Positions 13,671-49,583 are shown, counted from the stretch's first letter. The stretch is DNA of 64,000 nt from Euglena gracilis (GCA_039621445.1 CP154954.1:7079425-7143424), one strand, 5' to 3'. The notes: generated by a model from the letters alone, not told the origin. A program made the numbers and translations.

Positions 13671-16600
13671 ATGTTCGGCTCCTTGCTTGTCAGCAGCCTC
13701 GCCCAGAGGGTGGAGGGGGGCCCTGTGTGGGCGGTTGCCCCCCCCCCCAAGCAGCCAATGAGGGGGCTGCTTCTACCTCCCTTTCCCTTTGCTCAACGAC
13801 TGGCTTGTCCAGCCACCAGCGCCCAATGACCAGCAGTCAGATCAGATCAGATCAGGTCAGATCAGAGCAGAACAGTCAGATCAGATGCAATCTTTTTGCA
13901 CACGATGTTTGGTTCAATAATTGCAGAATTGGGTGATTTACTCTGTATTTTTTTTACATTCCTGTTGTAATTTATTGGGATGACCAATATAAAAAATGGC
14001 TGCAAATGACAAAAAATGGCGTGAGACAAGCCAAAGTCCCCCCAAAATGAACTCGTATTATCCAAATTGACACAATTGATCGTTGAATTGACACAATGTA
14101 ATCGTTCGAGATTGTGACAAACGACCGAACTTTGCAATAAAAATGGCCCAAAAAAATGGGGTAAAACAGTGACCAAAAAAAAGCCCCAAAACGCAATGGT
14201 CACGTGGCCCCATCTGCCGACAATTTTTGCAGACATATGGTCCACCGGCTTGTCCCCAACCCCCTTTGGTCGGAGGCGAACATCAGCTGCTTTAGTGACC
14301 CACCCGTGGTCAGGGACAGATATTGGTTGTCTTTGGACAAGGAGGGGAGGGAGACCGCTTCCCCCCTCCCTCTGAGGGCATATCGTCGGAGGACTCTCTG
14401 GCGGCAACCCCAATGACTGCAACCGCGTCGGCGGACGACGGGGACCGCGACGGGGACCGGCGGGGGAGCGGCGGGGGAGCTCCGCCGTGGCCTGGGGAGG
14501 GCGGCAGCGGGCTGCCCCCCTTCGGGCGGCCCCGGTCCGCCGGGGCGGAGATGGTCAGCCGGCCCCGGTCCGCCGGCACGGAGGCGGCCGAGGAGGCATT
14601 GGCCGGGACGTGGCTGGAATTTCCGCTTGGCAAACCCAAGAATGATGCCAAGAAAACAGGTTTTTGGTGTTTGTGTTATTTCTTTTTTGTGAAACGAAAA
14701 CGAAATAACTTTTTTTAAAATAAATGGAAAATAATTAAAAATAAAATTTTTCTTTCTTTTTTCTTCTCTTTTTTTTAGTTGTGGCAAAATGTGCGTGTTT
14801 TGTGTTTTGTTTCCCATTATTTGCATTTTCGCCTTTTTTTTCTTTCTGCTGGTAAATAATTTTGACTGAATTATTAAATTACATTTTACATCAGTTTACA
14901 GATTTCTCACGTGTCCCTGAGACCAAAATTTTGCATTTTTTGTCGATTTTACCCCAAAAATTACTTAAGAATCAGCAGTGATGAATAACACATTTTGTTG
15001 ACATTTTTGTTGGCTTTTTGCCTTTTCCTTTTTGCTTTTCTGCACGCTTTTTTGTGTTTAGTTTTCGTGTGGAGTTTTCAAAGGGCCCGTGCCCCTCCCA
15101 ACCCTGCTCCATTCCCCTTCCTTCCTTCCTGCAGGGAGGGAGCTCAGGTTCCCTGCAGCAGTTTGCATTTTAGGAGTTTCCTCCAAAGGAATTGAGGATA
15201 ATGAATTCGTATTTTCAAGTGACCGGCAGTAATTTTTTTGATGAGCGTTTGCCTGGAAAAGCAGTTTTTTGGGGGGGAGACCAAATTTGTTTGTACAGAG
15301 GCGGCCGACACCCTATGAGGCAAAGTTACCCAACGTATGCCCCAGTTCATGACCTTTATGGGCAATTAGCCTTGTATAGACATGAGAGGTACAGCCCCGA
15401 AGTGGGCTGCTCGGTGCATTTGGAATAGTCGCGAAAAAGGTTTTGTCAAATTGGAATTTGGTAGTGATGGTGGCAATGGAAATCAAAATAACCAACCAGA
15501 TTTAATAACGGGCAGGAGAGGCCTTGACGGAAACAGACAAAGGTATACATTTTTTGGCCTCGTCCCGTTCAGGGCTGCCATGGAAGGCGCTGCGTCTGAC
15601 AAGGCGCGCGTGTCACTCTGGAGGATGCGGCAGATCATGGCGCAGGAGGCGGACTGCGGCCCAAGCCCCCCCATATGCCAAAGGTTTTGAGTGCGGTGCA
15701 GTTTGCAGCACTCAACCGGAGACCCCAAGGCTCCGGTTGAGTGTTCTGCTCGCCCGGCTGCATGCCCACAGCTGAACCCCCCTTCACCTGTCAATCTTTC
15801 GGGGTCAACTCATCTCACTTTTTCAGTGACTGCTCTGCGCCCAGGAAGCTGGACCCCCAGTGCGGGCTGACCTGTCTGGTGACGTTTACCCCTGAAAGGC
15901 TTATTTTTAAGGAAGTGGAAGTGGACCCAGGGGATAGGTTTGGTGCATAGATTCTTTTAGCACCTGTGTGTACCCCCCGGGGGTGGGTGTGTTTTTGAGA
16001 GTGGGTGAGTGGGTTGGGGCCCCGGGGTGTGGGGTGCGCTGTGGGTCAGGTTTTTGCCCGGCTGAAGGCCGGGCCAGAAAATTTCCCCGCTTTTTTGTCC
16101 GACCTTGGCTGGATTTTGGGGAGAGTGCATGGCTGGGTGGGTGACCCCCCCCCCCCCTGTGGGGGAGGGTCGTGGGTGGGTAGGTGGGTGGATTGTCAAA
16201 AAAAAGCGGGTGGGTGGGTTTGGTCCCAGGAAAAATTCTCTCCCCACTTAGGGGTCACCAAGCAAGTGAATCTGTGGTTTGGTGCTATAGACAGGCACCC
16301 CCCCAAGCACCCCCCCCCAAGTTGATAAAACCGGCTTGACTCGTGCACGGGGGAGTATTTATGGGGAAGGTTGCCCCCACAGTTGCGCGCCGTCAGACAG
16401 CGTGTGGGACATCCCCCTCGTCACCCCGATGATCACCCGCCTGTTCTCCCATCGGTTCCTGGACGGGCGGTGTCTGGCCTCGAGGCGGTGGCGTGACGTA
16501 CCTGGCATTTCCCACCGATGGGTGTTGTCAAAGCTAAGCACGCCCGTCATGCCCAGTCACGCCCAGTCATGCCCAGTCATGCCAGTCATGCCCAGTCATG

Positions 16601-19600
16601 CCCAGTCACGCCATAAAAACGTTTGAGGGCCGCATCAGTTTGACACAGGCCAGGGGGTGGGGGTGGTCCCCAGTAAAACAAGGGGTGGAAGAATTGACCC
16701 CCGTCTGAACAGTTGGTTCTGTGACTCTGGGCGTGGCTGGCTTTGAGGACCCCGAAAGACGTTGTGACTGGGCTTGTCTGGGCGTGACTTGGCGGTTGTT
16801 GTGCTTGGCAAATTTGGGTCCCTGTGGTATCCTGGACAAATTTGGGTCAACCTTAGTAAGTTCATGGCATTTTGGCATTGCAATTTTGGGTTATCCTCTT
16901 TCTTTTCCCTCTTTCTTTGCCGAAAGTGTTTATTCCCGAGGATGAGGGGAAGGAGCTGTCACCCCCTCCTCCCCAGGACAGGGAGCTGCAGTTGAATGCA
17001 GGAACTGCAGTGGTTTTGACGGAGAGGATGCAGGTAATTGGATGGATGGTATGGTTGCCAGTGCGGGAATAGATGACGGTTAAAGGGATTGTGCAGGTAT
17101 TTGAATGGATGGTGGTTCAAGGGTAGATGCAGACTGGAGTGGGTGCAGGTATTGAAGGTACACCATTGGCTTCAAAAGGCGATGTTTGGGTGATTAGGGG
17201 GGTTACGGGGGATGCTGGGAAGGAGGTTAAGTCAAGGAAAATCTGACACCAAAGTCAATTTTTGGGTGGTTTGCGGCCGAAAAAAATTGTCCCCGGCAGT
17301 TTTCATTTCCCGGGGGAGGTTTATCAGTGAGGTTTGGTTGGTCGGTCCAAGGGGGGGGCTTATAAGTGGGGGTTTTTACACGTCTCAATTGCATCGCTGT
17401 TGGGATCAGGCTGTATTTTAGTCGGGTGCCGACCCCCACCCCGGGGGGGGGGGGTGCCTGCCTGGGCAGGCACCCCAAGGCACTCCAAATCCGACCCCCC
17501 CCCGGGAGGGGGCACACGGCCAAAAGTGCCCTAGCACAACCCCGGCGCCGAAGGCGCCGGGGAGCCAAAAATGGCCTATTTTCAAAGGAATGTGCCCGGG
17601 CACTGGCCGAAATCCGACCTGCCAAGGCATCTTCCGGACTGGCGCGGGGGTGCTTGAACTCCTCAACTGCCTCAACGGTCAACTGCCTTCTGGAGGAAGG
17701 TCTTCCTTCCTCCGCTTTGCACCGAAATTCTTTCGAAATTCTTTGAAATTTTTCAACATTTTTTTGACAGAATTTTGCCCAGAAAGTTCTTTAAAAATAG
17801 CCACATTTTGGGTCCTGTTTTTTGGGTTGTGAAAAATTCGCCACTCTGTGCCAGGCCGAAAATCGGTTCGGCAATGGAATTATTCAGGGGGGGGGGTCCG
17901 CCCCCCTCCGTTAATGAAAGGTGACGTCAAAAAAATGAAATCATTGGGCACAGGGGCCTTTGTGGCTATCATCAAATTCCTTTGATTTTGCCCCCCTTCC
18001 TGCCACCATTTGTTCGACATCATACTTATCGCTGGCAGTGAGTGTGGTCCGGCCCCCGCCCCCCGGTGGTCAGACAAGAGGTGGGTTTGATACGTATCTT
18101 AATTCCGGAGTGATTTTGCTGATACCATTCTTAAGTGTGTCTGACCCCCCGGGGGGTGATTGATTGTTCTTTCAGAACACCTGACTGTTTTTGGATCCAA
18201 ACCCTGGCCCAAACCTTTTGATTTTTGGCCATTTTTTTGGCCGAGTGGCAAGATTGATTAACCCCCCCCGGGGTGGAAAGTGATGTTTGGAAAGTGACCA
18301 TGGGGGGGGGTCGGTAAGCAAGGGTATGGTTTCAACTGTGTGTTGAGGCGTCACTTTGGCAGATGTGCTCGGTTCGTTTGCCAATCCACCCGCTTCCTGG
18401 GTGTGTGATTTCAGGGACAAACTGACAGTTTTCAGTTTTGATTTTCGATGCATAAAGGTGAGCCATATGGAGGTGTAAGTCCCTGCCTGTTCTTGTCCAC
18501 CCTGCGCCGGCGGTCCCATTCACACCAGATGCTTAATGTGGCTTTTCCTCAGAGCAGAGACACAGGTTCATTTCAAAAGTTTTGGATGTTTTGGCCTCCG
18601 CCCTCTGCCCCGAATCTCATTCGTCTGTGAGATATGGCAAAAGTGGCTTTTTTTTGTCTTGGAATAGTGTTCAGAAATATTGACGGAGCATACAAAACAG
18701 CAGATTCAGAGTTTTTTTGGGGGGGGAGTGGCCCCAGGACCCATTCCCCAGGCGTTGAATAAGCAATGGAATGCTCCCACTCATTTCTGCAGCTCCCACC
18801 ACGCCATGGGCTCCGCTCCCAGAGTGACCAGCAGCGAATGCACCAGACCCAGACCACTGCCGCCTAGTTCGCGGCTTATGTGAATGCCATTTAATAATCA
18901 GTGAAACTATTGCACAGAGTTTCATCCACGGCATACGGGCATTTGAATTTGTGATGAAGTGTCACAAGGTGTAGTGCAGTAATACTTAGGAGGCATAAAT
19001 TGCCCAACAGTTTTGGACGGTTTGAAGCGGAAAGTGGAAGAGGAGGAAGCGGAAAAACGCTTCGTCTGAACCCCCAAAAATTTTAGCTTTTCTTGGAAGA
19101 GGCCGTATTTGGGCCGTTTCTGCCGGTGTTTTGGCTTGGAGTAACGAACCTCTATAGGAGGCTGAAATGAGCGAAAAGGGGTATAAATTTTTGAGTGCAA
19201 GCCGAAATCGGCGAAAAGTGCACAAAAATTTCACATGAAGCGAAAAACCGCTTCGTCACTGCCCAGTTCTACTGCACTCCGAGGCGCCGAAACCTAAAAT
19301 GACCCAAAATGGGGCCTCACGAGGACAGAGAGGAGAAGAGGAAGCGGTGATTACCAAAAACCGCTTCCTTATTTGACGCCAGTCAGCGGAAATGAGGGGC
19401 AGGCGCAGGTTCCGAGGATGCATACAGCAGAAACCCCCTGAAATTTTCATAGTGGCCAGGAGGAAGCGGAATCACGCTTCCTCCTGACGATTTGAATTTT
19501 TCGAGGCCATGACTTCGAAGGCCTGAGTGGTCTGAAGGAGCATGAAAACAAGGGGGAGATGAAGTTGGAACCCGCAGCCTACATCTGGCACATACACAAT

Positions 19601-22600
19601 TTAATCTAGGCCGTATGTGGGAGTTTCGGGTGTTGGTGAGTGGACAAAGGCTTAGCTTGTGCTGTGATGGAACCTTCATCTTCTCGAGTCGTAGAACATG
19701 CCCAACTGGTCCGGATAGGACCTTGCAAAATGATGTACAAATGCATGGGGAGGGGGGCAGGAGGTATAGAGCCGTTATATGGGAAACCTGGTTGTCAACG
19801 ACATGCTGTGATTTGGCCCAATTGTATTGCGGGACATGGAAAGCCACCTGCGTGCGTTAGTGTTCCCACAGCAGCCATCTTGTTTAGTCCCTGGAAGACC
19901 CGCAGCTGTGCACTTTCAAAGGGGATGCATTTTACCCTCCCAACGAGTGCAGTCATTGTGCACGGTGTGGGGCATTGTGACAATTGATTAACGGCACCGG
20001 AATTGAATCGGGGGGGGGGGGAGGGCCGTCTGGGACAGTTTTCAGCCAAACGTGATAGGTCTGAAGTACTTTGTGGGTTCAATAACGAGCTGGGATGCAG
20101 CATTGTGGATGACACGGCTTACCATGTGGTTCGGAGAGTGCCTCCTCTTTCCTGAGACAAACATGGGGAGTGGCCTTAGACGTCAAGGTTTGATTCAAGG
20201 AAGCGGAAAGCCGCTTCCGTGAACTGATGGAGGATTCAGGGTGTACGATGAGGAGGTGATTGCCTGCCGCACACAGGGACGGCAACAGCAACAGCCGGTT
20301 GGAGGACTTGCCCCAGGATTGAACGAGGAAGCGCAAATCCGCTTCATTTGTGTTTTCCAGAATAACCTGAAACGTGTTTTCGTTGGTTTCTTTGGGGCTT
20401 CTTCATCCCTGGGAATCCTGCAGAGGTTGCAGGGCAGTTCCTGCAGCAGGAGACAAGGGCAGAAGTGGCTTGGTGCGCATTGTAGAGGGGTGTGGTGATG
20501 GTTGGTTTTGAGCAAGGTCGTTGAGAGGAGCAGCGCACATGAGATGACGCACGTAGAAATGAGAATGAGAGGAGATCAGTGAACGCAGCTTGAAGGTGGT
20601 GTTGGGCTTTACCTGTGGCAGTCCATTCCAGAGGACATCTTTGGTGTTCGCAAGCAAATGACAGCCCAGAAGGGGTCAAGGAGAAAGGAGACGTGGGATG
20701 GGGACCGAGAAGGTGAAGGAAGACGGTGGTTTCAAGTGAATGGAGGCAAGTGTCCTCCCTTTTCCATTGTCAACTGTGTATCTGTTTCTTCGGTGGGTTG
20801 ATTTCTGGTGCCAGGAAAGAAAACAAGGCACAGTGAAGGCTGGAAGTGGAGTACCAGACATTTTGCTGAAAATCAAAAAATCTGGGCCATTTCCCCTTTA
20901 AACAGGCCCCCTTTCAACTTGAGATACAATGCAAGCCCCCCAAAATATCCAGCTATGTGGAATTGTGTCTCAAACCCCCCCTCAAGTTCTTTCTTCCCCG
21001 GCCAAAGCGCAGGCAGGTGGGTCTTATCTGTGAGGTTTCGTCCATTTGTTCCTCCCAGGCCATGTTTATGGCCCACCCCTGGCAGTTACTGGTCAGGAGA
21101 GGGGCTCCGGAGGGCTGTCTTTGTCCTCAAGGCCTACCGACGGCTCTTGGCAGCACATGACTTGGTGAACTGCACACTCACCATACTCCCAGAAGGCTCA
21201 CGGAGACACACAGCCAGTCTTATCAGTCTTTGCACGTCCCGTTTCTGCTGTCTCTACCACCTGTGGGTAGGAGGGGACCACTTTCCAAAGAGAAAGCGCA
21301 AAACCGCTTCCCGCATAGGGAGGAAGCGGGATTACGCTTCTTCCCTGACGAAGCTGGTTTCCGCTTCATTCCAACTTTTGTGTGAAGTGTTCATCGGATT
21401 CCACTGCTGGCATAATTCCAGGTGCATTCAACAATTTGATTCTGGCACATCACTCCCACCCCCCGCGCACACCAGGTATTTGGGGACACCTTCACATCCC
21501 AATGACAGAACCTATTCCAGGACGCTGTGTTTAAGCACTGAATGGACCTGGAAAACGGTTTCACAGGGTTTAAGGAGATTGGTTCCAATCTTTAGTGATC
21601 CTCAGCCCCCTCAATTGTGCCTGACCCATTGTCCAGCTCTATGCTGCCTCCCTTCTTGAACAAGACAACTCCGTTGGCTTTCTGCCTGATGGAAACGCGT
21701 TGTTGCTGTAGACACAGTGTCAGCCTCATGCAAAACTAATCCATACCCGGCAATTTTTGTCCTCAAAGGAGCCTCAAAACACGGTGTCCAGCAACCCACA
21801 GCAAAACAGCCCACTCAAAGTCATCACCAAAATCCCTTTACAGAGGCCTTTTTGCCTCCGTTCCCCAATCAATTCTAAACACGCTGCTTGTAAGCCATGT
21901 AAACCCACCACCCATCCGCTCCCAGAACCATCCGAGATGGCACCACAACAATCAGACTGAGTCCAGGCATATTTCAAGCACAGTTCAGGCAGTCACCATT
22001 CAGCCGCCGGAGACCTCTCGTGAAGCCATAACTGACCCAGGGGTTAGACAACAGTAGATGGGCACTGAAGTCGTCACCAATATAAGTCCCCCAGTGGCAT
22101 AGGGCGAGAACGGCCATCGCCGAACCTGCTCCCCACATGCAACTACTTTATCTGGCCCACCCATAGGAAGCGGAAACACGCTTCCCCTGCTTTGTGGTTT
22201 CCAGCAGATGATTGCTGCCATAAGGCTTCTTTGGGTGACAATTGTTTTAATGTAGTAAAGACGTTGGATGATGTCTTATGTTGATGAGGTTGATGCCAGT
22301 TCTAAAGGTGCCTACTTGTTGTGATATGAAGTGGAGGAAGCGGATAACCGCTTCCCTATAAAAAGTTTCACAGGAAGCGGCAATCCGCTTCCGCCGATGT
22401 CAAAATTCAAAAAATATGTGCACTTTTGGCTATTTCAAAAAGTTCAGGGTGAAGCGTTTTTTCGCTTCCCCCAAAAAAGGAAGCGGATTCCCACTTCCCC
22501 TCCTACACCATCAAAAAACCTCCAAAACTTTCAAGTCAACTCTGGCACCTAAAATTTTTTGGGGGTTTTTGTTGCTATTTTTGGGTCGATTTCCAATGCG

Positions 22601-25600
22601 CCCGGTCAATTTTTTCATGGGCAGTTTATGCCTCCTAAGTAATATGTCCTTCTGTCCAATCTCAAGCTTTTGCCGCTAATTTTACCCCTGCAGACCAAAT
22701 GAGGAAAAGTGAATACTCTAACCCCACCAGAAGCTGCTTAATAATTTCCGTGGGAGAGGTTTGATGACTCTTTCAGAAGGTTAATGGTCGTGGTTATGCG
22801 TGTGTGTGGTTTTGGATTGAAAAAGAACCCCCCTCTGGGCCGAAACGGCGTGGCCAGGGTCCTATGACACATGCAAACTCAAGAAAAGACAACGTAAGGA
22901 GACAGGTCAGCAGTGTGTTGACCTTCGGGAGGTGACGATTATTTTGCTTTGATTAATTTACGTGTCAAAACACACACAAAAAACCGGAAGCAGGAAAAGG
23001 CATCATTCAAAGCAGAAGGAGAACATTCTGACAATATTCTGACAATTTAAATTCATTGTCATAAATTCAGGTCCCAGCCAGGAGTTTTTTCAAGGTTGGA
23101 CCCCAAGGGCGGAGGGTGGATAAGTCTGCCGGACCTCCTTCTCCCCCGGCGTACCCCCCAAGGTCAAGGTCTTTGTGGGTCCCCTGCCAGAGGCGTGGTT
23201 TTTGGCCATTTTTCGACCTCTTTTTTTCCCCTGGTTGGGGAACCCCCCCCCCCAGGGGAGAGGGGGTCCAACCAGCGGGTGTGTCCATTAACCAGTAAAG
23301 TCCCTAGCAGGCTTTTTTTTTAGTCGGGTGCCGACCCCACGAGGGGGGGTGCTAGGGGCAGGCACCCCATAGCACCCTATCCGACCCCCCGGCTGGGTCG
23401 GGTTTTTGGGGGTGCCTGCCTGCACACGTAGTAGGAGCTGGCACCCCCCTCCGACCCCGGCGCCAAAGGCACCGTGGCCCGGAAAAGGCCATTTTCAATG
23501 AAAATTTTCTGGGTCCCCCCCCCCTGGACCCCCCCACGGACCCCCCCCCCCGGGGGGTGTGCCTGCTAGGGGCAGGCACCATCTGGCACCCACGCCCCCT
23601 CCCCCCGGTCGGTAAGCACAAGCCTGGTCCCTGCTCCCCAGGGTCTTCTCAGCAAAAACCTGGTTCGGGCGGATGGCCCCCTCAACGCGCAGCCGCCTGC
23701 CAGCGAGGGCATCTACTGGGCCATCAAGGAGGGCCGCCGGGACGCCGTGCGGCGGCTGGCGCAGCAGGACCCCTCCGTGCTGACCCGCCCCGCCCAGGCG
23801 GCGGGGGCCACGCGGTGCGCTCCAGTTTAGCCTCCAGCACACGTTTCCTCTTCAGCAAGTGTGGCTGCTGCCCGTGGTATGGTGGGCATTGCCACCCCGC
23901 AAGGACTCTGGAAGTTCGGCCCCTGAATTTCGCGGTGCGTGTTGGGCGTGCGGCCTGCCTGGGACGCGGTGGGGGCCAACCCGATCCACATCGCCTTCCT
24001 GTACCGGCGGACGGAGATCGGCAAGATGCTCGTCGAGGAGTACCCCCAACTGGCACCCAGAGCCGCAGTCCAGTTCCCGCCACTCGCCATCCACCCGTTC
24101 GTCTTGACACCCTCTGCTCTAAATGCCTGCGACACGCAGCAGCCAAGCGAAGTGTTTTTCACCTGATCGCCCCCGAGAAATTGTCATGCCTCAGAAGAGC
24201 TGGGTCCTCCAGGAAATTGTCTGCATTGCTCTCTGCTCTTGTAAGACGGAGATGTTTTTTTTCCCCCAAAAGTTGGTGTCCTGGCGGGGGGGTTCGGGAT
24301 GTTTCCCAGGTCAAAAAAATTTCCCCGTTTTTTTTTCTTCAATGAGAAAGTCTGTAACAAGACGTCTTCAAGCATCTGTACCAGGAATAGTTCCTCGAGT
24401 AGAAGCACACTGACTTTTGACCATTGGCCCCATCAAACGCCCCCCCCCCCCCCAAGAATTGAAACCCCAGTGCGTCGGTTCAATGTGCACGTGCATGCAA
24501 AGCCCCCCTCCTGAATTGTCGCCCTGGAACCGACGTCGGTGTACGGGGAGGGGGAGTACAGCGGGGAGAACATCCTGCACATTGCCATTATCCACCAGGA
24601 CGTGGAGCTGGTGTGCTGGCTGCTGAATCGCGGCCATATCACTGCTGAGAGTCACCCCCTTTTCCCGATGATACTTGGATGCATTTGCTCAAGAATTGAA
24701 CCAGGAACCGGTGGCATATAACTAGCAGTCCCCACTCTGGTAAGGGCGGAATTGTGGGAGAGTTTTTGTTTTTGGAACTGAGAATGTCGAACGGCCTGGA
24801 CTTCGGCAATAACATGCGTGCGATCCGGAGCTGCTTAATGCGGAGACCACCGGCTCGTTCTTCGCCCCAAGCGGGGACGTGTACTTTGGGGACCCAGGGA
24901 CTCTGGCACACACTGTTCACCGTGCTTTATGTGCAGTATCTCATCCGTTTCACCAACGAGGAAGTTATCGCTGAAAAAGGGTTAAAAAAATTGAAAGTGT
25001 GGCAAAATCTGCCGGGAGGCTGTGCAAAGTGAAAATTTGTGGCCGCTTGCGTATGTGAGTGGCAAAACCGCCCTTGAACAGATACTCTTTGCAACGGAGA
25101 TATCTTCAACAACGACAAGGGGTTGCCCCCCAAATATTCCGAGGCACGCACAGACTCTTGTTTTTTTTTGTGGCCACAGTTTGTGGCTACGGCCGGCAGG
25201 GGCGAGATCCTTTTCTCCCGCCACCAGATGGTGAAGTTGGCCCATGGTTACAAGCAAACACTGAGGTAGCAAGAAAATAATGAGGTTTTTTTTTGAACAC
25301 ATGGGGTTTTGGGTTTGGGTTCAAAATGTTTAACTTTTGCTGATGCAATAATGAAGCTGAACACCACTACAATACATGTGGGGGGGATCGAGTCGAGCCG
25401 CTGGGGTGCCCATTGTGAAGCCTAACGGGTGGGAGGATGCCACCCTTTGTGCTGTCCTATTTGCCATTAGCCGGGGCTGCTCCCAAGAGAACAGTCTGTT
25501 TTGCAACGCAGATTGTTCTGGTATCGACACTCTGCATGGTGGGCTAACCGATGATTAAACAATGTGATCAAACCCAGGGCTGTTCCAGGTTTAATGGTGG

Positions 25601-38261: not shown

Positions 38262-38297
<36 letters not shown>

Positions 38298-40006: not shown

Positions 40007-41365
40007 TGGATGTGATTCATAAGCTGGATGTCATCTGGTTGCGGCAAGACATCACAGAAAATTTTTTAGTATTTTGCCGGGAGCACGCTGCATATTGATT
40101 TGGGTTTAAAATGATGATGGTTGGGTGGGCATGGGACTTGCCAAGGCTCTGTAATGACCGGAAATTCACATGCTGACGGCTTTTACGCTTGTTATGCCAT
40201 CCACCTGTTGACCGCATCTCAACCCAAATCCCAATTCATGTTTTTTGTTTATCCCCGGCGTGGGAGGGGGTTCGTCCCTGGGCATTCATGTGCGAGAATG
40301 ATCAAGTTTTTGAAGAACTCAATTTCTGGCTGCATAGCACCCGCCTTGTTCGCATGGACAACCGGCTGGCGGCCGAGTGGCCCTGAACGATAACCCACCG
40401 CCCGCCTCTCCCCCATGACACTCGCCGTCCCTGAACCCAACCCTCCCCCTCCCGCTGTAGTTATTCCGCCCATTTGTCCCGGGGCTCCTCCGGGCCCCGG
40501 TCCCGCACTGCGCGGCTCAGTGCGTCGTCGAAAGCGTTGCGAGGCCCCCTTTCGCTCGCCGACAGGGCGTCAGCCCTGCGGGCTGGCGGCGGAGGGGGGC
40601 TGGCCACCTGAGCGAAACCAACCATCTCCGCGAGCTCATCTGGCCACCTCGATGCTGTCCACCCAAAATCGTCCTGCGTGCAATCAAGGTTCTCTAACAC
40701 CCACTTACCCTCCTCGGTCGCAGGACATTTTTCAGAGTTTGGCCAGATTTTCAGTGTGTTGCAAATCCCGTCTTGAAAAAGTTTTCTGCCAAAAATCACC
40801 TTATGCTTAAAATACCATTTGGGGCACCATATTTTGGCGATTTGTGGTGTTTGAAAAAGGGGGGGATAATTCCCATATTGTGGTTTGCAAATTTGGGAAA
40901 TTGCCTGGGGTGCACCTGTGTCGTAAAGTTGAGCCTCCATTTCGGTTTGGGGAATGTGTGCATGGGTTTGGGAGATGGGTGATTGGGGGGGTTGAAAAGC
41001 TGGTTATGTGCGTGTGGGGGGTGCCAGTAGGTGGTGGTGTGCATGCCATGGTTATGTTTTGAGCATAGTTGGAAGGAAGAGTGAGTACGTGCAAGAGTTG
41101 CTTACAAAGGTATTCATAACCCACTCCACTCACCCGGCAGGTTTGGTTGCAGGTTTTTTTTGATTGAAAGCCAGAGGAATCCCTTCAACGGTTGCTAACA
41201 AAAGAACATTGCTGTGCATTGTCTAATGAGGGTTTGTGTGTGAATGGATGCTCAATCCCCCGATAATTTCTTGTCCTGATGACGATTTGGCGCGTCCCTG
41301 GCAGGGGCATGTTTCCATTGCCCCTGCGCCGCGTGTCCCATTTCCCACCCTGCGCCCCCCCCCCC

Positions 41366-41379
41366 CCCAACTTTCGCAG
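41366..41379 (+). promoter_or_regulatory. Candidate splice acceptor (cis or spliced-leader trans) just upstream of the b561 start codon
   Basis: Pyrimidine tract plus GCAG 12 nt before the ATG, conserved in copy B (CCCTTTGCAG ending at 55438). Confidence 0.45.
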
Positions 41380-41391
41380 GGGCTGTTGAGA

Positions 41392-44300
41392 ATGCAGTTT
41401 GCCGCACAGGCTCCGGAGGTTGGGCAGGCGGAGTACTTCACGCCGACGCCGGAGGTGTACGTGTACCCGGAAGAGCCACAATGTGAGGTGGGGAAGTGGC
41501 CCGAAGGTATGCTCCACTCCTGTCCTTCTGTGTTTCACTCTTGTTCGTATCCGTGTCTCAGTGAATTGACTTTTTTCTTAATTTCAATTTTGATTTGTTC
41601 ACAGGGTATAATGCAGCAACACGATGGTGCAGGAGTGTTCCTGTTTTGAAAGGAATGCAATAATTTTCAGAATTGTAGAATACTTTGTTCCACACGCTTT
41701 TTCATTTGGACAGGCTAATGCTCTTCTTGTTGCATTTCTGCAGAATCCCTTTTTGTGACTCCACAGAGGGCCAGCCAGAAGTACTCCCAGCCTCCCACCC
41801 GTGGCATTGGTGGCGGTGGGTACTGTGGACCAGACCAACATTTGGTGGCAGTCACCAAAGATACCGCAGGCAAATTATTCCATGTTATATTTCAATTAAT
41901 GCATTCATTTTTTCTTTTGTTCGGAATTAATACATTCGTGCTATTTTTATTATTTATTTGAAACAAATTGCACGTTTCAGCTTATGTATATTTGATGATT
42001 TTTTTTAACACGCAGTAATACTCAATGTAATTTCCTCCTTCCCCATCTCCAAGGGCCACCCCGTCCTGACCCATGGCTTTTATATTCTTTCAAAGAGCAT
42101 TCTTTTGTGTCCTTTTGTGAGATATTGCTTTACATTTCGCCATTATCATCAGAATGTTTTAACGAGATTTTTTTGATTTCTCCCCCACTTATTGTTCCCG
42201 CCGTCCAATGTCCAGCACCTCCCTCCCTTCCCTGGTTATGGCGGGATTTATTAAAGGATGGACCCTGGGGGACAGGGAGGGTCGGTGGGTCCGCCCACCC
42301 CCCGGGGGGTTGCTTCCAAGTGCGTTGTGGGTCCCCCACAAGGTTCTGGCTTTTTTGCCTTTTTTTTTTCGGTGCAAGGGCTCCAAATTTTTTTGACCCC
42401 ATATTTGACCTCAAAAATGCCCCCCCCAGGGTGGAGGGGCGCTCTTTGGGTGGGCGGGGTTCCCCCTGGTGTCTGTCTTATGACCACATTTCCGGTGTAC
42501 CCAACCAATGGACCGGGGGTGGGTATTTGTTGGCCCTGGACGCCCGATCCGATCCCCCGATCCCCCCCTAACGTCGCCTCTGCAACGCTGGCCTGAGGTG
42601 GGCGCTGCCCCGCTTGCTGCTCGTGCCCTTCCTCGCCCTGTTCTTCCTGTGGGTGTTCAACGCCGAGGGGGGCGTCGGGCTCGACGCCTCCAGCCTCTTC
42701 GGCCTGCACGCCGTGCTGATGGTCGTCTTTGTGCTGCCCAGACCCCCGGCCCCCACCGATGGCTCATGGTGCAATGTGAATGTGCAGCGAATGAGTCTCA
42801 GGCGTGAATATTTTTTTGGAAAATCGTATTGGGCAGCATGTTGAGGGGGAAGGGGCGCGCGTCACGCAAACTATTTCTTATAGTCTTTTATGTTTCTTAT
42901 AACACATTTTTTCTAGCAAAAATTATTACTTGAATTTCCAAAAAAAAAAAGGTTGCCATTCTTTCAGTTTCCTCAACACAAAGCAGGGGAAAGTGCTTGG
43001 GAAAAAACCTAAAAAAAAACTGGTTGAACGCAATGAGAAATATTTTGCGGCAATATAGCTCTATACTATAAATAATATATATTTAGCTCTATAATCATAC
43101 CTACCCCCCCCCCCCCGGAAAACTGTCATGCCCGAGAACCTGTCAGGGTCCCGCCCGGGAAACTGTCAGGGTTCCCCGGTACCGGCCAACCTGTCAGTAT
43201 AGGAAGTTGTCAGGGTCCCCGGTACCGGCCACCCTGTCAGGGTCATTTTTCATTGACTTTCCCTTGAAGTGCCCTACCCGGGAAACTGTCAGGGTCCCGC
43301 CCGGGAAGCTGTCAGGGTTCCTGGTACTGGCCAACCTGTCAGTATAGGAAGTTGTCAGGGTCCCCGGTACTGGCCAACCTGTCAGGTGACAGTTTCCCGG
43401 GGGGGGGGGTAGGTATCAAAGGTTATTTTTTTTATAAAATTAATTAATAATTTTAATAATATATATATGCATAATTGATAATTGTAATATTATTAATATA
43501 ATCATATAATTAATAATGAATATAAATTTAATTAATTTTTAATATTTTCTAGGCTTTATGTGATTTTTTGGGGGGCTGCATTAACCATTTTCTAGCTGAG
43601 GCTTCACAGAGAGAAGCCAAACACCGGTCGATAACTATGGGAAAATATGTGGGGATTTCAGCGATTTTACCATTTTTGTCTATGGTAATTTTTGTTTGTC
43701 ATGCATTTTAGAGTTCACGCATAATTCTTCGAAGTGGTTGCCACCGACGTAAGGGTTTTCGCCAGCATACTTTTATTGGTGTATCGTTCCTGAACTTTTT
43801 TTTGGATGTTTGATGTATGACTGGCTGGGGCCTTGTTCCGATCTGCATGCAGGAGGCCCTCCTTGTCTATTCCGTTCCACTTTTCGGGCCTCTGCCGGTT
43901 CCCCGAGCTGCCTCCAAGTGTGCCGCCCCCAACTCGACGTGGCTGTGCTGCGGCGAAAATGAATGGGAGGCTGGCCAGTGTTGAGGCCGGGGGTTGCTTA
44001 ACACGGGTGTTGCGTAACGCGCAGAACCCCAACGTTTCCGCAATCAAAGCTGCAGTACCCCCCCCCCCCTATGTCCAACGACCACCCCCCCTCGGTCAGG
44101 ACACCTTTTCGGAGGTTTGATTTTTTTTGCAGGTGTCTGGAAACCGGAGGTTTGCCAGCCCTGAAAGGCTTTTCTTCCGCCCTTCGTTTGCATTTTCTTT
44201 GCATGTTCTCTTGACCTGATCTCCGCAACAAAATCGTCCAAGGATGTCAGTTCTGGGTGCTATTTAAGTAAATATTTGTTGACAGGGCTGGAAATGGGGC

Positions 44301-47300
44301 GCAAAGCGAAGTTTTGGGGGGGTTTCCGCAAAAAAAAAATCCCGACCCTGTGTCCAACGACCACCCCCCCTGTCAGAGGACACCTTTTTGGTCACTACCC
44401 TATGTCCAACGACCGCCCCCCCCCCCTGGTCAGAGGACAGAGGGTACCGGTCGTTGGACATAGGGGGGGGGAGGGGGGTAAGGTGGGTTGGAGTGGGACC
44501 AGGATCAGTGTCTAGTAAATTGGCTGGCCAGGGTCCTCAACCAAAAAGCTGAGTGGGACAGACATTTATTCTACCGTTGAAATATACCAAATGTTAGGCG
44601 ACTCATCTTGCTATTAAGTTTTTTTTCTGGTTGGTTTGTTTTCATCTCCGCCTCCTGGGCCTCACATCACATCCTGCTCGCATTTTTGGATTTTTGGGGT
44701 CATATCTTGTCATTTTCACAGGGGGGGGGAAATTTATATCCGCAATTTTTCCGCAATTTCCGCAAATTTCCGCAATTTCCGCAATTTTCCGCAATTTTCC
44801 GCAATTTTTCCGCAATTTCCGCAATTTTTCCGCAATTTTTCACCGTTTTTTTGAAGAATTTTTTCCCCACCACCGAAGATGGAAGATGCAATGAGTTCAA
44901 GCCATTCTTCAAATGGATCAACAGGTGTGCTATTGTGTTTTGTTGTCCCCCCCCAGTTTACCAATTTTTCTCACAGGTGCACCACTGGTCACAGGATTGG
45001 GTGCGTCCCACCTGTGCAAAGAACATCAAGCGTGTTGATTTGTGCTCGCCTGCATCGACGTGGGTGTTGCGGTGTTCTGAACCTCACAATTGAAAATTTT
45101 CTAAGTCCCCCCAAGCAGAAATGTGTATACCCGATATCAATTTTTCCGCAATTTTTCCGCAATTTCCGCAATTTTCCCGCAATTTTTCCGCAATTTTTCC
45201 GAAGGCCTCCGATATCAATTTCCCCCCCCTGATTTTCATAATAAAAAAAATGTCGATGTGCGCATTTGCGCACATCGGCAAAGAAAAAAAGTGCGAGATG
45301 CGCTGCCTGAGCAAATCTCCGACTGCATTTCCCTCAGCCTCTTTTCATTTCCCTGTTCCCTAGCTTGGGGCATGAAAGGAAAGCATCAGTTTCTCTGCAA
45401 AAAAAAACACTGAATTTTGGCAAATTGATTGGAACAGCAAACTTACGGCAATATCATCCCAAAAATGAAGTGTCAGCAATCCACACAATTTGGAAAAAAT
45501 GAATGCCTGTGTTGATGTTAATTTGGTTTTGTTTAGATTTTGTTTTGTTTAGTTTGAAAATATTATTCCCCAAACAATATATTGTAAATATAAATTATAC
45601 AATTATACAAAAATACATATGTATGTATGTATAATATAATATCAATGAAAATGCTTCAAGAGGTTGTAAAATGAAGAATTTGGCTGCATTTATCATGTAT
45701 GGATGGATGGGAGTAAGGGAAGCAGCTGGGCAGGCGGTCAGGCAAGCAGGAAAAAAAAATGAAGAAGGCCTTTGTGCGGTGGGCTTTTGGCCTCTGGCCT
45801 TCATTTTTTCCAGGGCTTCCCGGTTCCATAAGGTGCTCCCGCGCAGGGCCGTCCACGCTTTCTTCCACCTCGCCGGCCTGGGGTGCGCCGTTGGGGGGCT
45901 GGTGGCCATCGTGTCCTACAAGCGCCAGAACGGCGACAACATCTACCCGAACTACCCGGTGTACACCCCCCACTCCTGGGTGGCCATTGCCTTCCTCGCT
46001 TTGTGGACCATGGATTCATTCAACACCCGTGTGACCCCACCCTCCGGGCGGTAAATGGGTTTTTGTGAGTGGGTGGGTGAGTTGGGGCCTCTGAACCATC
46101 TCAGGGGGGTGGGGTACACTACGGGGCAGATTTTGTCCGAGCCAAAGTCCGTGCCGGAAAAACGTGTTTTCGGCTGATATTGACTGGATTTTGGAAGTTA
46201 GATTTTGGTGGGTGGTTTTGGGCCTAGGGAAAAGGTCCTCCCCCAGAGTCACGAAGTGAATCTATGTTGTAGACCCTCCAGCTGCTGGGAGCAAGCCACT
46301 GCCACGCATGGTGGTGTCAAATGAGGGATAACTGTGCAATCGAATGCACCTTTTCTTCAAGATGTTTGTTTTTTTTTCAGTTTACAGTTGCTTTCTTAAA
46401 GCTATTGAGTTTGAACATTTGACTACAAGACGACTTGCATTTCCACCAGTGAGATTATTAGTTCTGCAGTTAATTTGGGGGGAATGAAAAACCACTTTTT
46501 TGTGTAGCTTTTCTCTCCGGTCCAGAGAGAAACTGCATGATTTGATTCACAAACCTGTCTATCCGAAGCAATTACCACGCCTTTCTGGCCGAGAACCCAT
46601 TATCAGGAAGTATGTCACCACTGGTCATGGTGACTTAACTGAAATTGTTGTGTTTCGTCCCATAGCAGTTGCAGTGGCTTGTCGTGGAGGTGCTGTTGTT
46701 TTTGCTCTCATCAAGGATGAGCAGATCAAGCAACGATGCAGGGCCACCACCCATCTCATGATGATTTCTTTTTTTTTGTCTGCACACGTACACCTATGCC
46801 GCCGAACTCAGAATTACAGAAACATGAAAGTATTTGGTTGAAACATTTTTGTGTCTGATGTCTTTCTAATAAGACAAAATTCATTTAAGTCTGTTGATTA
46901 TTTGCCTTTGTTTATTTGTTGGGGGGGGTAGACGTTCAATTAACCCAACTGCAAATCTCGCGTGGAATATTCACTTTTCGGATTCTCAAATTCTCAAAAA
47001 TAATTAACAGGTGCATTTTTGCACATTTTAGAAATGCAAAAAAAAGGTTCCTTGGGTTGAATCCGACATCTGCGGTTCACCTGCATAAGGGATCCCACCT
47101 TCAAATGGGGACTTCAAACGTGCCCTTAAGTGCGGACATTGAAGAGTTTCTTTTCAACAGTTGGCTGCAACTCGCTGACTGGTGGTGTTGATGTTGGTTA
47201 CGGGGTTCCCCTTCTGCCCCCTCACGCGCTGGAGCCAGTTTGCTACCAGAGGCTGTTGATAATCCTATTAATGACCAGGAGAGTTTGGGGCAAAGAAGTC

Positions 47301-49400
47301 CCCCCGGTGGGGGGCAAATGGGAATCTGCCGACCTCATTTTACACTCTAAGTTTTTAATTCAGATGGATCTGGCCACCCGGGCTGAAAGTGCCAAAAGCT
47401 AAAAAAGTTGCAGTCTGCCAAACCGTTTCATCCCCAACCCGGCATTTTTTTCCAGCCAACTCTTCTCAGCCGGCTGCCGGAATTCCGCTGGGGGACCCCA
47501 CCATCTCCGTTTCCTGTGTGGGGGTTTAAATGCCCTCGACAGAGAAGTAACCCCGAATTTTTCGAATTTTGATCGGGATTGGCGGTGCGGGCGACGTTCC
47601 ACCGCTTCTTCGGGAACGTGACCTACGGGGTCGGCCTCGCCACGTGTGCCTTGGGCTTCCAGGACATGCAGTCCAGCGACCTCTCGTGGCTGGCAACCAG
47701 GGACTGCTTTAATAATACAACATATATTCTATTATATGTTTATTGTATTATTATATAATATTATAATAATATAATATACAATATTATATTATATTATATA
47801 TTTATATATATTTTTTAGATATTGATTTAATAACAATATCGAATATTCATAATTAATTTGGACATCACAGACGCTTCTTCTAAGAATTGGTTTTCTGTAA
47901 AATGTATTTTTCAAAGTCCCATCCCCCACCAGGTCCCCTGCGCTGCTGAATAAAAGTCTCTGCGTCCGATGCCCAACATGACGGACGCAATGGCGTCCAT
48001 GGCGGGCATGGACATGGACATGCCCGACATGCCCACGGGCTACCAGTACAACTCCATCCTGGCCTGCTACGCCAGCGCCTGCAGACCACGGTGGCTGCAA
48101 TTATATGTGACTGATCCCTTCCTACCCCCCCCCCCTTGTCCAACGACCGGGCTTGTCTAACGACCACCCCCCGGTCAGAGACGATCTTTTTGTATACGAT
48201 GTTGGTTCAGTACTGCGAAAAAATTGTGTGATTTTATTTTCGGTTTAGTTGCATTTGCATGTTCCAGTGATGCTTTTTTTTTCGATTTGTTTGGGATTAA
48301 CACCCTAAAATGGCAGAAAATGCCAAAACAGCACAAAAAAAGGCCAAAAGCTCCCCAAAATGGTTACAAATCACCCCAAAATGACTGAAACGTATGGAAA
48401 GTGTGAGATTGTTCCAAACGGCTGAAATTTGATTACAGTTGGCCAAAAATGGGCAAAAATGGCCTGAAATTGGGCAAAAAGTGGCCCAAAATTGCCAAAC
48501 GTGGCCAAAAGTTGCCCAAAATGGCCAGAAGTGGCCAAAAAATGGCTAAAGAAACCAAAAATGGCCAAAAGTGGCCAAGAATGACTAAATGAAACCAAAC
48601 GTGGCAAAAAATGGCCAAAAGTGACCCAAAAATCCCAAGAGTGGCCAAACAATGGCCAAAAGTGGCCAAAAAAATGGCAGAAGTCGCCAAAAATGCCGAA
48701 AATAGCCCAACGTTGTCCAAAATGACCAAATACCCCCCATATGTGGCCAATTTATTGCCGACCTGGGGCCCACCCCCCTTGTCTAACGACCACCCCCCCT
48801 GGTCGGCGACGAACATTGGCCAATTTAGCGACCGCCCCCCCGGTCGGAGACGAACATTAGTGGTTGTTGGACAAGGGGGGGGGGGGAGGTAAGGGAAATT
48901 ATCTTCCCTGAGAAACTGTCGTTTCACCGACGTTTTGGGCTGCAGTGCCCGGGGACAGTTTCCCGAGAGGGGCATATTGTTTATCAAAAGGAGAAGAACA
49001 AAGTTTGGAATTTCACTACATACTGCTCACCCCATTGTTGGCCCACTAGGTGCAAGGATCCTCCACACTCATCAACATCACGCACTCGCAAAGAAAAAAG
49101 AATTGGTTTGCTTTAAATACCCGCGTTCAATATTTCCCCCAAGCTTCTTTTTTGTGCAGAGCTAAATTTTGTAACGGAAGGATTTTGGAAACCCAAAAAA
49201 ATTTCTGGCCCTTCGCTCCAGGGTTTTTCTCCCGGGGGGGGGTGGCACCTCCCCCCTCCTTTAATACCCTGCTCACAAGGCATGAGGGGCAGAGCAAGTC
49301 CGGGCCTCTCCGCATCACATCCATGTCCCAGCCATTGTGCGACTGTCTGTTGCTGGTGTTCATCGGGATCGCCACGTTCTTTGTCCAGCTTTTCAAGTGA
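41392..49400 (+). CDS. Cytochrome b561 family di-heme transmembrane reductase with Met-rich loop, copy A
   Basis: Exons 41392-41506, 41767-41831, 42596-42735, 43840-43917, 45847-about 46010, one unresolved short exon near 47460-47500, 47586-47694, 47968-48083, 49345-49400. Four heme-ligand His occur in b561 context: FGLHAVLM..QEALLVY, KAVHAFFH, YTPHSWVA, TFHRFFG. Introns 41507-41766 and 43918-45846 are GT-AG; the resolved others are non-conventional. Confidence 0.87.
43100..43413. mobile_element. MITE-like element (CTGTCAGGGTCC family), copy-A-specific
   Basis: TIR CCTAC(n)GGAAAACTGTCA / TGACAGTTTCCCG(n)TAGG with TA on both sides; about 11 TGTCA motifs; absent from the homologous intron of copy B. 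Confidence 0.85.
44058..44478. mobile_element. MITE (GTCCAACGAC family) with TA target duplication and a visible empty site
   Basis: GCTGCAG-TA-[element]-TA-AGGTGGGTTGGAGTGGGACC in copy A vs GCTGCAG-AA-AGGTCGGTTGGAGTGGGACC at 57433-57461 in copy B. Confidence 0.92.
44719..45231. mobile_element. Non-autonomous TIR element with 7-bp TSD and CCGCAATTT arrays
   Basis: TIR CAGGGGGGGGGAAATT / AATTTCCCCCCCCTG; ATTTTCA directly repeated at 44712-44718 and 45232-45238; tandem CCGCAATTT(T) near both ends. Confidence 0.88.
48125..48889. mobile_element. MITE-like element (GTCCAACGAC family, subfamily A) with internal TGGCCAAAA tandem repeats
   Basis: TA-flanked; ends match 34878-35317; degenerate AAGTGGCCAAAA array at about 48440-48730. 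Confidence 0.85.
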
Positions 49401-49583
49401 GTCGTGCGACTTAATGATTTGCTTGACTCCCACTCTGTGCTTAAGTGATCTGCCTCCCCTCTGCCTAGCTGGAGGCTGATGCCTGCCTCGCTTGGTGCAC
49501 CCCCATTGTCTGCAGATTGTCTGTTTCCTGCCGAAAGTTTGGGCCGACAAACACACTGCTTCGCTGAACACCCATATTTTTCT

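Follow-up and report, generated by a model that had tools for sequence, protein, structure and literature searches.

Introns with paired ends in a fixed register in a TRP channel gene and a cytochrome b561 gene of Euglena gracilis

Results

The locus and its introns

The window, a stretch of 64,000 nucleotides of Euglena gracilis-like nuclear DNA, was found to hold a TRP/ankyrin channel gene and a cytochrome b561 gene. The former was traced by tblastn with the eukprot proteins EG_transcript_3144 (P0001) and EG_transcript_820 (P0002); in Pfam its ankyrin repeats score over the cut-off and Ion_trans under its own. The b561 exons, fused at the RNA joints, give a single open frame, in which PF03188 (Pfam) matches the exon at 45848-46003 (E = 8.7e-6).

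7736-40006 (+): TRP/ankyrin cation-channel gene, end ~40006, about 37 exons
41392-49400 (+): cytochrome b561 gene, 10 exons, 297-aa open frame

Thirty-eight introns were modelled between 14601 and 49344, namely 35 non-GT-AG introns of the stem type, two plain GT-AG introns (B1 and B4) and one intron (T11b) with no convincing stem. The sequence-only reading, according to which nearly all introns here lack GT-AG, stands for these 35 and needs amending in b561, where conventional introns occur beside stem-type ones: B1 and B4 are the only introns with conventional U2-type borders and no terminal stem, and B2 can be read either way. None of the 35 depends on GT-AG, and only B2 also slides to it. 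Three upstream introns (T1, T5 and T8) were added to the 35 to give the stem-type set (n = 38) used for all counts over 38 below. The introns are populated by MITE-like inverted repeats, and direct repeats at their ends are common, sliding being possible in 30/38.

RNA contigs and raw RNA-seq reads pin nineteen junctions at this one locus, seventeen of them stem-type and two plain GT-AG. Run X21 is declared RNA-seq, whereas the contig runs X1-X3 are presumed to be RNA, a guess; repeat-free intron bins show almost no depth. All six introns named in the sequence-only reading were recovered with their borders and pairing, i.e., CGG/CCG (T9), CAA/TTG (T10), CAT/ATG (T15), GTG/CAC (T24), CAG/TTG (T34) and CAC/GTG (B8).

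Introns and small exons of the TRP gene:
14601-15572 (+), T9: GGC-CGG...CCG-TTCAG, 7-bp stem; protein-guided, spliced product matches EG_transcript_3144
15659-16378 (+), T10: GCC-CAA...TTG-CCCCC; unique best protein-guided junction
16461-18494 (+), T11a: CGG/CTG, one G.U
about 18495-18513 (+): small exon between T11a and T11b
18514-18783 (+), T11b: about 261 nt, no convincing stem
18847-23704 (+), T12: 4858 nt, ACC-CAG...CTG-CCAGC
23792-23962 (+), T13: CAG/CTG
24055-24531 (+), T14: CAG/CTG
24632-24821 (+), T15: GGC-CAT...ATG-CGTGC; four slide positions give the same mRNA, pairing at only one
24892-25670 (+), T16: CAG/CTG, 3' spacer 6 nt
25780-26239 (+), T17: CAG/CTG, 3' spacer 6 nt
26295-27065 (+), T18: CAG/CTG, 8-bp stem
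27084-27404 (+), T19: CGG/TTG, two G.U, 10-pair stem
27430-28451 (+), T20: GTT-CAG...CTG-GGTCC
28551-29182 (+), T21: CGG/CTG
29230-30224 (+), T22: CAG/CTG, picked by stem among synonymous candidates
30339-31193 (+), T23: CAG/CTG; RNA joint 30335>31191, 29 raw reads
31250-31569 (+), T24: AAA-GTG...CAC-GTCCC, 10-pair stem; RNA joint 31248>31569 in contig runs X1, X2 and X3 plus 8 raw reads
31712-32055 (+), T25a: CAG/CTG, 6-nt 3' spacer; RNA joint 31709>32054, 15 raw reads
32056-32092 (+): 37-nt exon with a stem-type intron on each side, RNA joints
32093-32245 (+), T25b: CAG/CTG; RNA joint 32090>32244, 8 raw reads
32359-32847 (+), T26: GAG/CTG, G.G mismatch at +4/-6; paralogue protein only, junction uncertain
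32927-33267 (+), T27: CAG/CTG, 6-nt 3' spacer; RNA joint 32924>33266, 3 raw reads and 3 contig runs
33350-34328 (+), T28: GTG-CAG...CTG-TCTTT; RNA joint 33348>34328
34386-34624 (+), T29: CTG/CAG; RNA cut 34386-34623, a 4/4 register
34743-35594 (+), T30: GTC-CAG...CTG-CTGTC; RNA joint 34742>35595, 13 raw reads
35698-36291 (+), T31: GCC-CAG...CTG-CTCCC; X2 contig piece stops at 35697, acceptor placed from stem and reading frame
36323-36854 (+), T32: CAG/CTG, 7-bp stem; paralogue protein
36928-37570 (+), T33a: GGC-CAG...CTG-CTTGC; sliding impossible
37571-37586 (+): 16-nt micro-exon with a stem-type intron on each side
37587-38387 (+), T33b: GGC-CAG...CTG-CCACA, 8-bp stem
38491-39850 (+), T34: GGA-CAG...TTG-GCGTG, 9-pair stem; paralogue protein only

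Introns and micro-exon of the b561 gene:
41507-41766 (+), B1: conventional GTATGC...CACAG without a terminal stem; loose ends 41506 and 41765
41825-42600 (+), B2: slides between GT-AG (41825-42597) and GAC-CAG...CTG-AGGTG (41828-42600); RNA joint, 62 raw reads
42736-43839 (+), B3: GCC-CAG...CTT-GTTCC; RNA joint, 69 raw reads
43918-45846 (+), B4: conventional GTGTGC...GCGCAG; RNA joint, 58 raw reads
46006-46271 (+), B5a: GAC-CAT...ATG-TTGTA, 12-pair stem; RNA joint
46272-46288 (+): micro-exon, about 16-17 nt
46289-46686 (+), B5b: GAG-CAA...TTG-TCGTG, 11 bp, Watson-Crick throughout
46742-47592 (+), B6: GGC-CAC...GTG-CGGGC; matching loose ends 46742 and 47593 in X1-X3
47695-47967 (+), B7: AAC-CAG...CTG-CGTCC, 8-pair stem; RNA joint, 96 raw reads
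48084-49344 (+), B8: GAC-CAC...GTG-CGACT, 11-pair stem; RNA joint in 4 runs, 116 raw reads

Both micro-exons are visible in the RNA. The X1 contig joint 36927>38388 holds 16 letters that match 37571-37586 exactly, and the RNA joint 46007>46686 carries 14 letters, thirteen of which are 46275-46287, while the first, C in the window, appears as T in the reads. Other rows carry their own limits. T10 pairs over 3 bp followed by an internal loop and 7 further pairs, at a place where the guide protein differs and many other pairings lie nearby; T11b has 10 equally good start positions (18514-18523) falling in two synonymous groups; and the loose end at 30221 does not decide the T22 junction. The exons flanking T15 show 97% and 100% identity to the transcript protein.

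Splice sites lie at a fixed distance from a terminal helix

An arrangement of a 3-nt spacer, Watson-Crick pairing of +4..+6 with -8..-6 and a 5- to 6-nt spacer is reachable in 15 of the 19 RNA-fixed junctions when slide positions are allowed (at most 6 positions and either of two spacers for each intron), the misses being T29, B3 and the plain GT-AG introns B1 and B4. For stem-type introns this amounts to 15/17, against null rates of 5.5% in 200,000 random pseudo-introns and 5.6% (395/7068) with the acceptor shifted; the probability of at least 15 of 17 is 1.6e-17. The earlier description of three unpaired nucleotides at the 5' end and five, sometimes six, at the 3' end is thereby borne out, the 3' spacer being 6 nt in 4/38 modelled stem-type introns. 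When 88 registers were scanned, 3/5 ranked best with 13/17, and two others fit 3/6 only. Among introns with two slide positions or fewer, 3/5 fits 6/8; two introns do not slide at all, T33a in the 3/5 register and T29 in 4/4. Spliced RNA joints confirm the exact borders of seventeen stem-type introns, T29 being off by one in register; 3/5 would there need 34387-34624, which fits the RNA if the transcribed copy carries C at 34386 (a SNP). The splice sites lie 3 nt and 5-6 nt outside the terminal helix, and no RNA joint falls at a nearby GT-AG site instead, an outcome for which the sequence-only reading had proposed a check.

Triplets, covariation and preferred letters

The triplets of the 38 stem-type introns comprise 32 that are Watson-Crick, four with G.U and two with a mismatch, and 16/38 differ from CAG/CTG; these counts are partly circular for the 21 introns without an RNA joint, as the stem was used there to choose among equal or synonymous positions. 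Two-sided changes confirmed by RNA are GTG/CAC, CAC/GTG (twice), CAT/ATG and CAA/TTG, and 5/7 non-consensus RNA-fixed introns are complementary in register (P = 4e-5). The two sides thus usually change together, as had been claimed, with the exceptions of B3 (CAG/CTT, RNA-fixed and spliced) and T26 (GAG/CTG), where one-sided changes leave +4/-6 unpaired. B3 has a C.U mismatch there, and 6/7 of its next seven positions are paired.

Some positions hardly vary. The +4/-6 pair is C-G in 35/38 (+4 is C in 36/38) and +5/-7 is A-U in 32/38 (+5 is A in 32/38); all four Watson-Crick pairs are found only at +6/-8. A purine occupies intron +1 in 37/38 and exon +1 likewise in 37/38; +3 is C in 27/38, with C.C at +3/-5 in 18/38. 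These pair and letter preferences indicate that the signal combines a fixed-register helix with a small number of favoured letters and is more than geometry. The proposal that geometry rather than sequence is read keeps its helix in a fixed register and is overstated in view of these preferences, of the one-sided changes in B3 and T26 and of the whole-intron folds given below.

Intron ends pair with their own partners at -18.2 kcal/mol versus -12.1 kcal/mol with foreign ends, and 0/20,000 permutations were as good. Over the first six positions G.U outnumbers A.C (24 vs 10, p = 0.024), which lends weak support to selection on the sense RNA. Minimum-energy folds of whole introns contain the full terminal triplet in 12/36 and none of its pairs in 23/36, so that in many cases the calculation prefers some other fold to the helix. 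Constraining the triplet to pair adds a median of 2.15 kcal/mol, with 10/36 introns above 5 kcal/mol.

The code CDG/CH'G of Nomura 2025 describes 26/38 introns. The twelve outside it carry CAA/TTG (three), CAT/ATG (two), CAC/GTG (two), GTG/CAC, CGG/TTG, CAG/TTG, GAG/CTG and CAG/CTT, and 10/12 still pair.

Discussion

We are highly confident that these are standard euglenid nonconventional introns obeying a pairing-plus-register rule, a judgement that covers intron identity and the rule and not the enzyme. They share with that class, as described in Milanowski 2014, Milanowski 2016 and Nomura 2025, the non-GT-AG borders, the terminal helix from +4/-6 with a CAG/CTG majority, the 3-nt and 5-6-nt spacers, the purines at intron +1 and exon +1, the direct repeats, the MITE-like content and the conventional introns in the same gene. 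There is no difference in kind; what stands out here is the 12/38 off the 2025 code and the 4/4 register of T29. According to Milanowski 2016, complementarity at +4..+6/-8..-6 is conserved rather than sequence, CAG/CTG occurring in 33/55 introns (PMC4770533). Nomura 2025 established the code N3-CDG/CH'G-N5-6|R by mutagenesis: single CAG or CTG changes, a 5' spacer altered by +/-1 or loss of inner pairing abolish splicing, and CGG-CCG, CGG-CTG and CTG-CAG are given as working triplets (PMC12501133).

In the mechanism we propose, the two intron ends would pair in the pre-mRNA in a helix beginning at +4/-6, leaving unpaired stretches of 3 nt on the side of the 5' exon and of 5 (sometimes 6) nt on that of the 3' exon, and cuts would be made at those set distances. 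The first pairs are usually C-G, A-U and G-C (CAG/CTG), the first nearly always C-G, while the second may be G-C, G.U or U-A and the third any Watson-Crick pair, with the purines at intron +1 and exon +1 contributing to the signal. Removal by a non-spliceosomal machine is fairly probable, a view drawn from the literature and not from the window, which itself documents the RNA junctions, the register and the covariation; both strands would most likely be cut a set number of nucleotides away from where the helix ends and the exons then ligated, with the intron freed as a circle. Circular intron RNA is credited to Guminska 2021 in PMC12501133 and PMC12621601, and the endonuclease/ligase hypothesis has been in print since 2014 (PMC3935182, section 10; PMC12621601, discussion). 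Among the best 15 of our 86 RNA joints, none is a back-joint at intron ends.

Three known systems offer partial likenesses. In tRNA-type splicing by a bulge-helix-bulge endonuclease and a ligase, structure and not junction sequence likewise sets the cuts, and both are reported to yield circular introns (cited in PMC12621601). However, the bulge-helix-bulge has two 3-nt bulges across 4 bp, whereas the introns here have 3- and 5-6-nt tails and an open-ended helix of 3-12 pairs. An outer helix of exon -1:+1, -2:+2 and -3:+3 pairs no more than shuffles (21/38), and intron +1/-1 pairing is not above shuffles either (18/38). RNase III-type cropping, proposed for diplonemid and euglenid introns (PMC12621601), also excises a hairpin from a longer transcript, and, were the helix extended on paper, the 3-nt 5' and 5-nt 3' tails would leave a 3' overhang of 2 nt, as might result from a staggered RNase III-like cut measured from the helix end. 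On the other hand, the stretch between cut and helix is mostly unpaired here, as the C.C at +3/-5 illustrates, and the exons need ligation, a step absent from RNase III pathways. Ire1 cuts within the loops of two hairpins, unlike the introns here. Its HAC1/XBP1 reaction is nevertheless a non-spliceosomal mRNA intron removal by endonuclease and ligase (PMC3935182, section 10); the same source found no Ire1 orthologue in E. gracilis ESTs.

The complementarity could instead be a relic of MITE-like terminal inverted repeats, with a machine that reads letters (C at +4, A at +5, the purines) and a covariation that is historical. The near-constant +4 and +5, the end direct repeats and the inverted repeats filling the introns agree with such an origin, and PMC4770533 itself asks whether the pattern is a 'fingerprint' or a signal. 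We nevertheless consider it unlikely, as proper splicing stops when the inner pairing of a synthetic intron is broken (PMC12501133), G.U exceeds A.C, and compensated variants with 10-12-pair stems get spliced. Removal by the ordinary spliceosome, with the stem merely drawing the ends together and the end letters being degenerate splice signals, appears quite improbable. B2 is readable as GT-AG, GT opens four stem-type introns and AG closes one, and a spliceosomal route is kept open for diplonemids in PMC12621601. Yet 0/35 in-range stem-type introns need GT-AG, the cuts keep a constant distance to the helix and not to GT or AG, and the plain GT-AG introns B1 and B4 do without a stem; a lack of U1 complementarity has been published (PMC3935182), and circular products are reported through citing papers. 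A mere choice of pairing positions among equivalent slidable junctions has next to no chance despite the freedom allowed and the synonymous alternatives in the protein-guided set, being ruled out by the random and shifted-junction controls, which had equal freedom, while non-sliding T33a fits 3/5 (T29 does not) and introns with few slide positions mostly fit as well.

The pairing-plus-register pattern is already published, and the sole small increment of this work is a set of naturally occurring introns that are spliced and fall outside the code of 2025. All four Watson-Crick pairs at +6/-8 in spliced introns, the flipped +4/-6 pair in GTG/CAC and the pairing kept in 10/12 off-code introns form the basis for a tentative suggestion, that CDG/CH'G may be a special case of a broader rule, under which pairing of any triplet in the 3/5 register suffices. 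If this broader rule holds genome-wide, it would account for a large share of the 28.9% of introns in E. agilis that Dataset S8 of PMC12501133 lists as 'unclassified'.

Gene models and splice junctions

With the EukProt proteins EG_transcript_3144 and EG_transcript_820 as tblastn queries, an ankyrin/TRP-like channel gene was traced on the + strand from 7736 to approximately 39900 in about 35 coding pieces. Several of these exons are 100% identical to EG_transcript_3144, and exon 31571-31741 matches both transcripts with 94-96% identity. Ankyrin repeats were found by Pfam in both transcripts whereas Ion_trans scored 20.8 bits against a cut-off of 25, so that the name 'channel' reflects a weak match only. 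The second gene was recognized by a cytochrome b561 match (PF03188, E = 8.7e-6) in exon 45848-46003, for which a longer relative was sought in the protein collection and none was found. Its gene model is based solely on RNA, and its exons, when joined at the RNA joints, give a single open frame of 297 codons.

All frame-compatible donor/acceptor pairs between adjacent exons were scored against the transcript protein. The intron boundaries that the sequence-only reading had proposed were recovered in this way, 15659-16378 as the unique best junction and 14601-15572, 24632-24821, 31250-31569 and 38491-39850 within groups of positions that score equally well. Exactly one of the protein-allowed positions has, in most introns, a stem that begins at +4 and at -6 or -7. 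Introns with such a helix, with 3 unpaired nucleotides at the 5' end and 5-6 at the 3' end, are referred to here as stem-type, and T and B denote the introns of the TRP and b561 genes respectively. No clear stem or GT-AG was observed at the protein-guided junctions of TRP introns 2, 3, 4, 6 and 7 (8.5-13.6 kb), where the guide is poorer, and no convincing stem was observed at those of T11b. These six introns were excluded from our table of 38 introns, which comprises 35 stem-type introns in 14601-49344 together with T1, T5 and T8 upstream.

The search for sequencing runs gave 19 contig runs (X1-X19) that were guessed to be RNA (shares of 0.11-0.14; none on record as RNA), one probable DNA run and four declared RNA-seq runs of raw reads. 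Three of the guessed runs (X1, X2 and X3) and one declared run (X21) were aligned to 29500-49499. Depth in repeat-free intron bins was almost nil (0.11, 0.15, 0 and 0 at 29500-30166), which is RNA-like. Nineteen introns were defined by RNA joints and by letters that the aligner left unplaced and that were then located in the window, and the RNA mapping thus shows the junctions to be real. No joint was found for T31, T32 and T34 among the listed best 15 of 86 joints. The exons and introns revealed in this way are as follows.

Short exons and GT-AG or intermediate introns defined by RNA
32056-32092, + strand: 37-nt exon between two stem-type introns
37571-37586, + strand: 16-nt micro-exon between two stem-type introns, from letters within the joint that the aligner left unplaced
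46272-46288, + strand: 16-17-nt micro-exon between two stem-type introns, from letters within the joint that the aligner left unplaced
41507-41766, + strand: B1, plain GT-AG intron of the b561 gene
43918-45846, + strand: B4, plain GT-AG intron of the b561 gene
41825-42600, + strand: B2, 'intermediate' intron that slides over five positions and reads as GT...AG or as GAC-CAG...CTG-AGGTG followed by a purine

Many base differences are common to the runs, for example at 34711, 35647-35665 and 45890-45941. At least two more expressed alleles or paralogues were observed, one of them as a joint at the T24 site (31246-31574) with seven replaced letters.

Register of the terminal stem

Fifteen of the 19 RNA-fixed introns contain, at an allowed position, three nucleotides, a Watson-Crick triplet (+4..+6 with -8..-6) and then five or six nucleotides before the exon; the misses are T29, B3, B1 and B4. 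The same arrangement was found in 5.5% of 200,000 random pseudo-introns and in 5.6% (395/7068) of cases when the acceptors were shifted by 15-200 nt, and the probability of at least 15 of 17 is 1.6e-17. Among 88 registers scanned, 3/5 (5'/3' unpaired nucleotides) was the best with 13 of 17 introns, its sliding neighbours 2/6 and 4/4 scoring 10 and 9. The 3/5 register also fits six of the eight introns that have at most two positions. In T29 (34386-34624), the RNA joint 34385>34624 allows no sliding and the CTG/CAG helix is thus in register 4/4 and not 3/5. The expressed copy may carry a T>C change at 34386, which would yield identical reads; allele differences occur elsewhere in the same runs.

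Covariation of the triplets and sequence constraints

The CAG/CTG triplet pair is the most common in our table with 22 occurrences. The remaining 16 introns consist of ten with full Watson-Crick pairing of the two triplets (three CAA/TTG, two each of CAT/ATG and CAC/GTG, and one each of GTG/CAC, CGG/CCG and CTG/CAG), four with a G.U pair (CGG/CTG twice, CGG/TTG and CAG/TTG) and two that are mismatched (GAG/CTG and CAG/CTT). Seven of the RNA-fixed introns are non-consensus, and five of these seven pair in register, for which P = 4e-5 when the number of positions allowed to each is taken into account; the stems of four of the five extend to 10-12 pairs in the same register and that of B6 to only 4. 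Duplexes formed between an intron's own ends are stronger than those with foreign ends (mean -18.2 vs -12.1 kcal/mol; none of 20,000 permutations was as good), the own partner being the single best duplex in only 7 of 38 introns.

The three pairs of the triplet differ in their variability. The first pair (+4/-6) is C-G in 35 of 38 introns, G-C in one and mismatched in two, and the second (+5/-7) is A-U in 32, G.U in three, U-A in two and G-C in one. The third pair (+6/-8) is G-C in 29, A-U in three and U-A, C-G and G.U in two each. The view that geometry rather than sequence is read therefore stands for the pairing and the register but is overstated in making the letters irrelevant, as only the third pair varies freely. 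Purines occupy intron position +1 and exon position +1 in 37 of 38 introns each, C is found at +3 in 27 and a pyrimidine at -1 in 29. The ten introns with A as their first base all have C as their last, which may be due to chance since C occurs at -1 in 25 of the 38. Pairing at +4/-6 is also not universal, as 69 raw reads show abundant splicing of B3 despite an unpaired C.U there.

Minimum-energy folds of whole introns contain the fully paired triplet in 12 of 36 cases and no triplet pair in 23. Forcing the triplet to pair costs a median of 2.15 kcal/mol, with a cost of at most 1 kcal/mol in 16 introns and above 5 in ten. Within the first six stem positions, G.U exceeds A.C (24 vs 10, p = 0.024), an excess that is not significant across eight (p = 0.09) or ten (p = 0.13) positions.

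Structural class and intron content

No outer helix was found beyond the terminal stem: exon positions -1 and +1 pair in 21 of 38 introns against a shuffle mean of 22.9, and intron positions +1 and -1 in 18 of 38 against 21.9. The bulge-helix-bulge motif was therefore rejected. Tails of 3 and 5 nt would correspond to a 2-nt 3' overhang, in agreement with a published RNase III suggestion. No Rfam match was found within the window.

The introns contain inverted repeats whose ends are rich in C or G, for example 33559-33585/33799-33825 (27 nt, 100%) and 43106-43128/43387-43409. Contig depth reaches thousands in the intron bins 33502-34168, 35503-36169, 42840-43506 and 44174-45507, where inverted repeats have poly-C/poly-G ends and plausibly represent multi-copy MITE-like elements. 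The proposal that the introns are filled with MITEs is thus plausible on the basis of the repeats and the depth. Long di- and tetranucleotide microsatellites occur at about 12.7-13.0, 30.8-31.0, 38.15-38.4 and 49.5-49.85 kb, where they show up as HTHT/CVCV and YMYM runs in ORF translations.

A second TRP copy lies in tandem, with its 3' end at 718-3873. Compared with 35597-39886, this upstream copy is uninterrupted coding sequence across the T32, T33a and T34 sites and retains introns at the T31 site (819-2118, GCC-CAG...CTG-CTGCC) and the T33b site; neighbouring paralogues hence differ in their stem-type introns.

Relation to published splicing rules

Both the pairing rule and the endonuclease idea have been published previously. 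Milanowski 2014 (PMC3935182) described a conserved pairing core of +4,+5/-7,-6 and proposed an endonuclease resembling the tRNA-splicing ones, and terminal pairing is reported genome-wide in E. gracilis (PMC11170887). Candidate routes named in PMC12621601 are RNase III plus a ligase, a tRNA-derived machine or the spliceosome, and circular intron RNA is cited there from Guminska 2021. Nomura 2025 (PMC12501133) probed the splicing signal by knock-in: single changes in CAG or CTG abolish splicing, the 5' spacer is obligatorily 3 nt while a 3' spacer of 5-6 nt is tolerated, a purine is preferred as the exon start, inner pairing is required, and CGG-CCG, CGG-CTG and CTG-CAG are functional. The resulting code (N3-CDG/CH'G-N5-6|R) covers 61.2% of nonconventional introns; 28.9% of all introns are unclassified in Dataset S8 of that work, and its main text reports no tests of compensatory changes in the first or the third pair.

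The 2025 code does not accommodate 12 of our 38 introns. Pairing is kept in ten of these 12, five of them being confirmed by RNA (T24, B5a, B5b, B6 and B8), which suggests that a wider paired-triplet rule contains the code. For the question of how most Euglena introns are removed, the locus offers clean natural examples only, and what these add is small: RNA-backed splicing of introns outside the code when the triplets at the two intron ends are altered in concert, and 16-nt exons that are able to stand between two stem-type introns.
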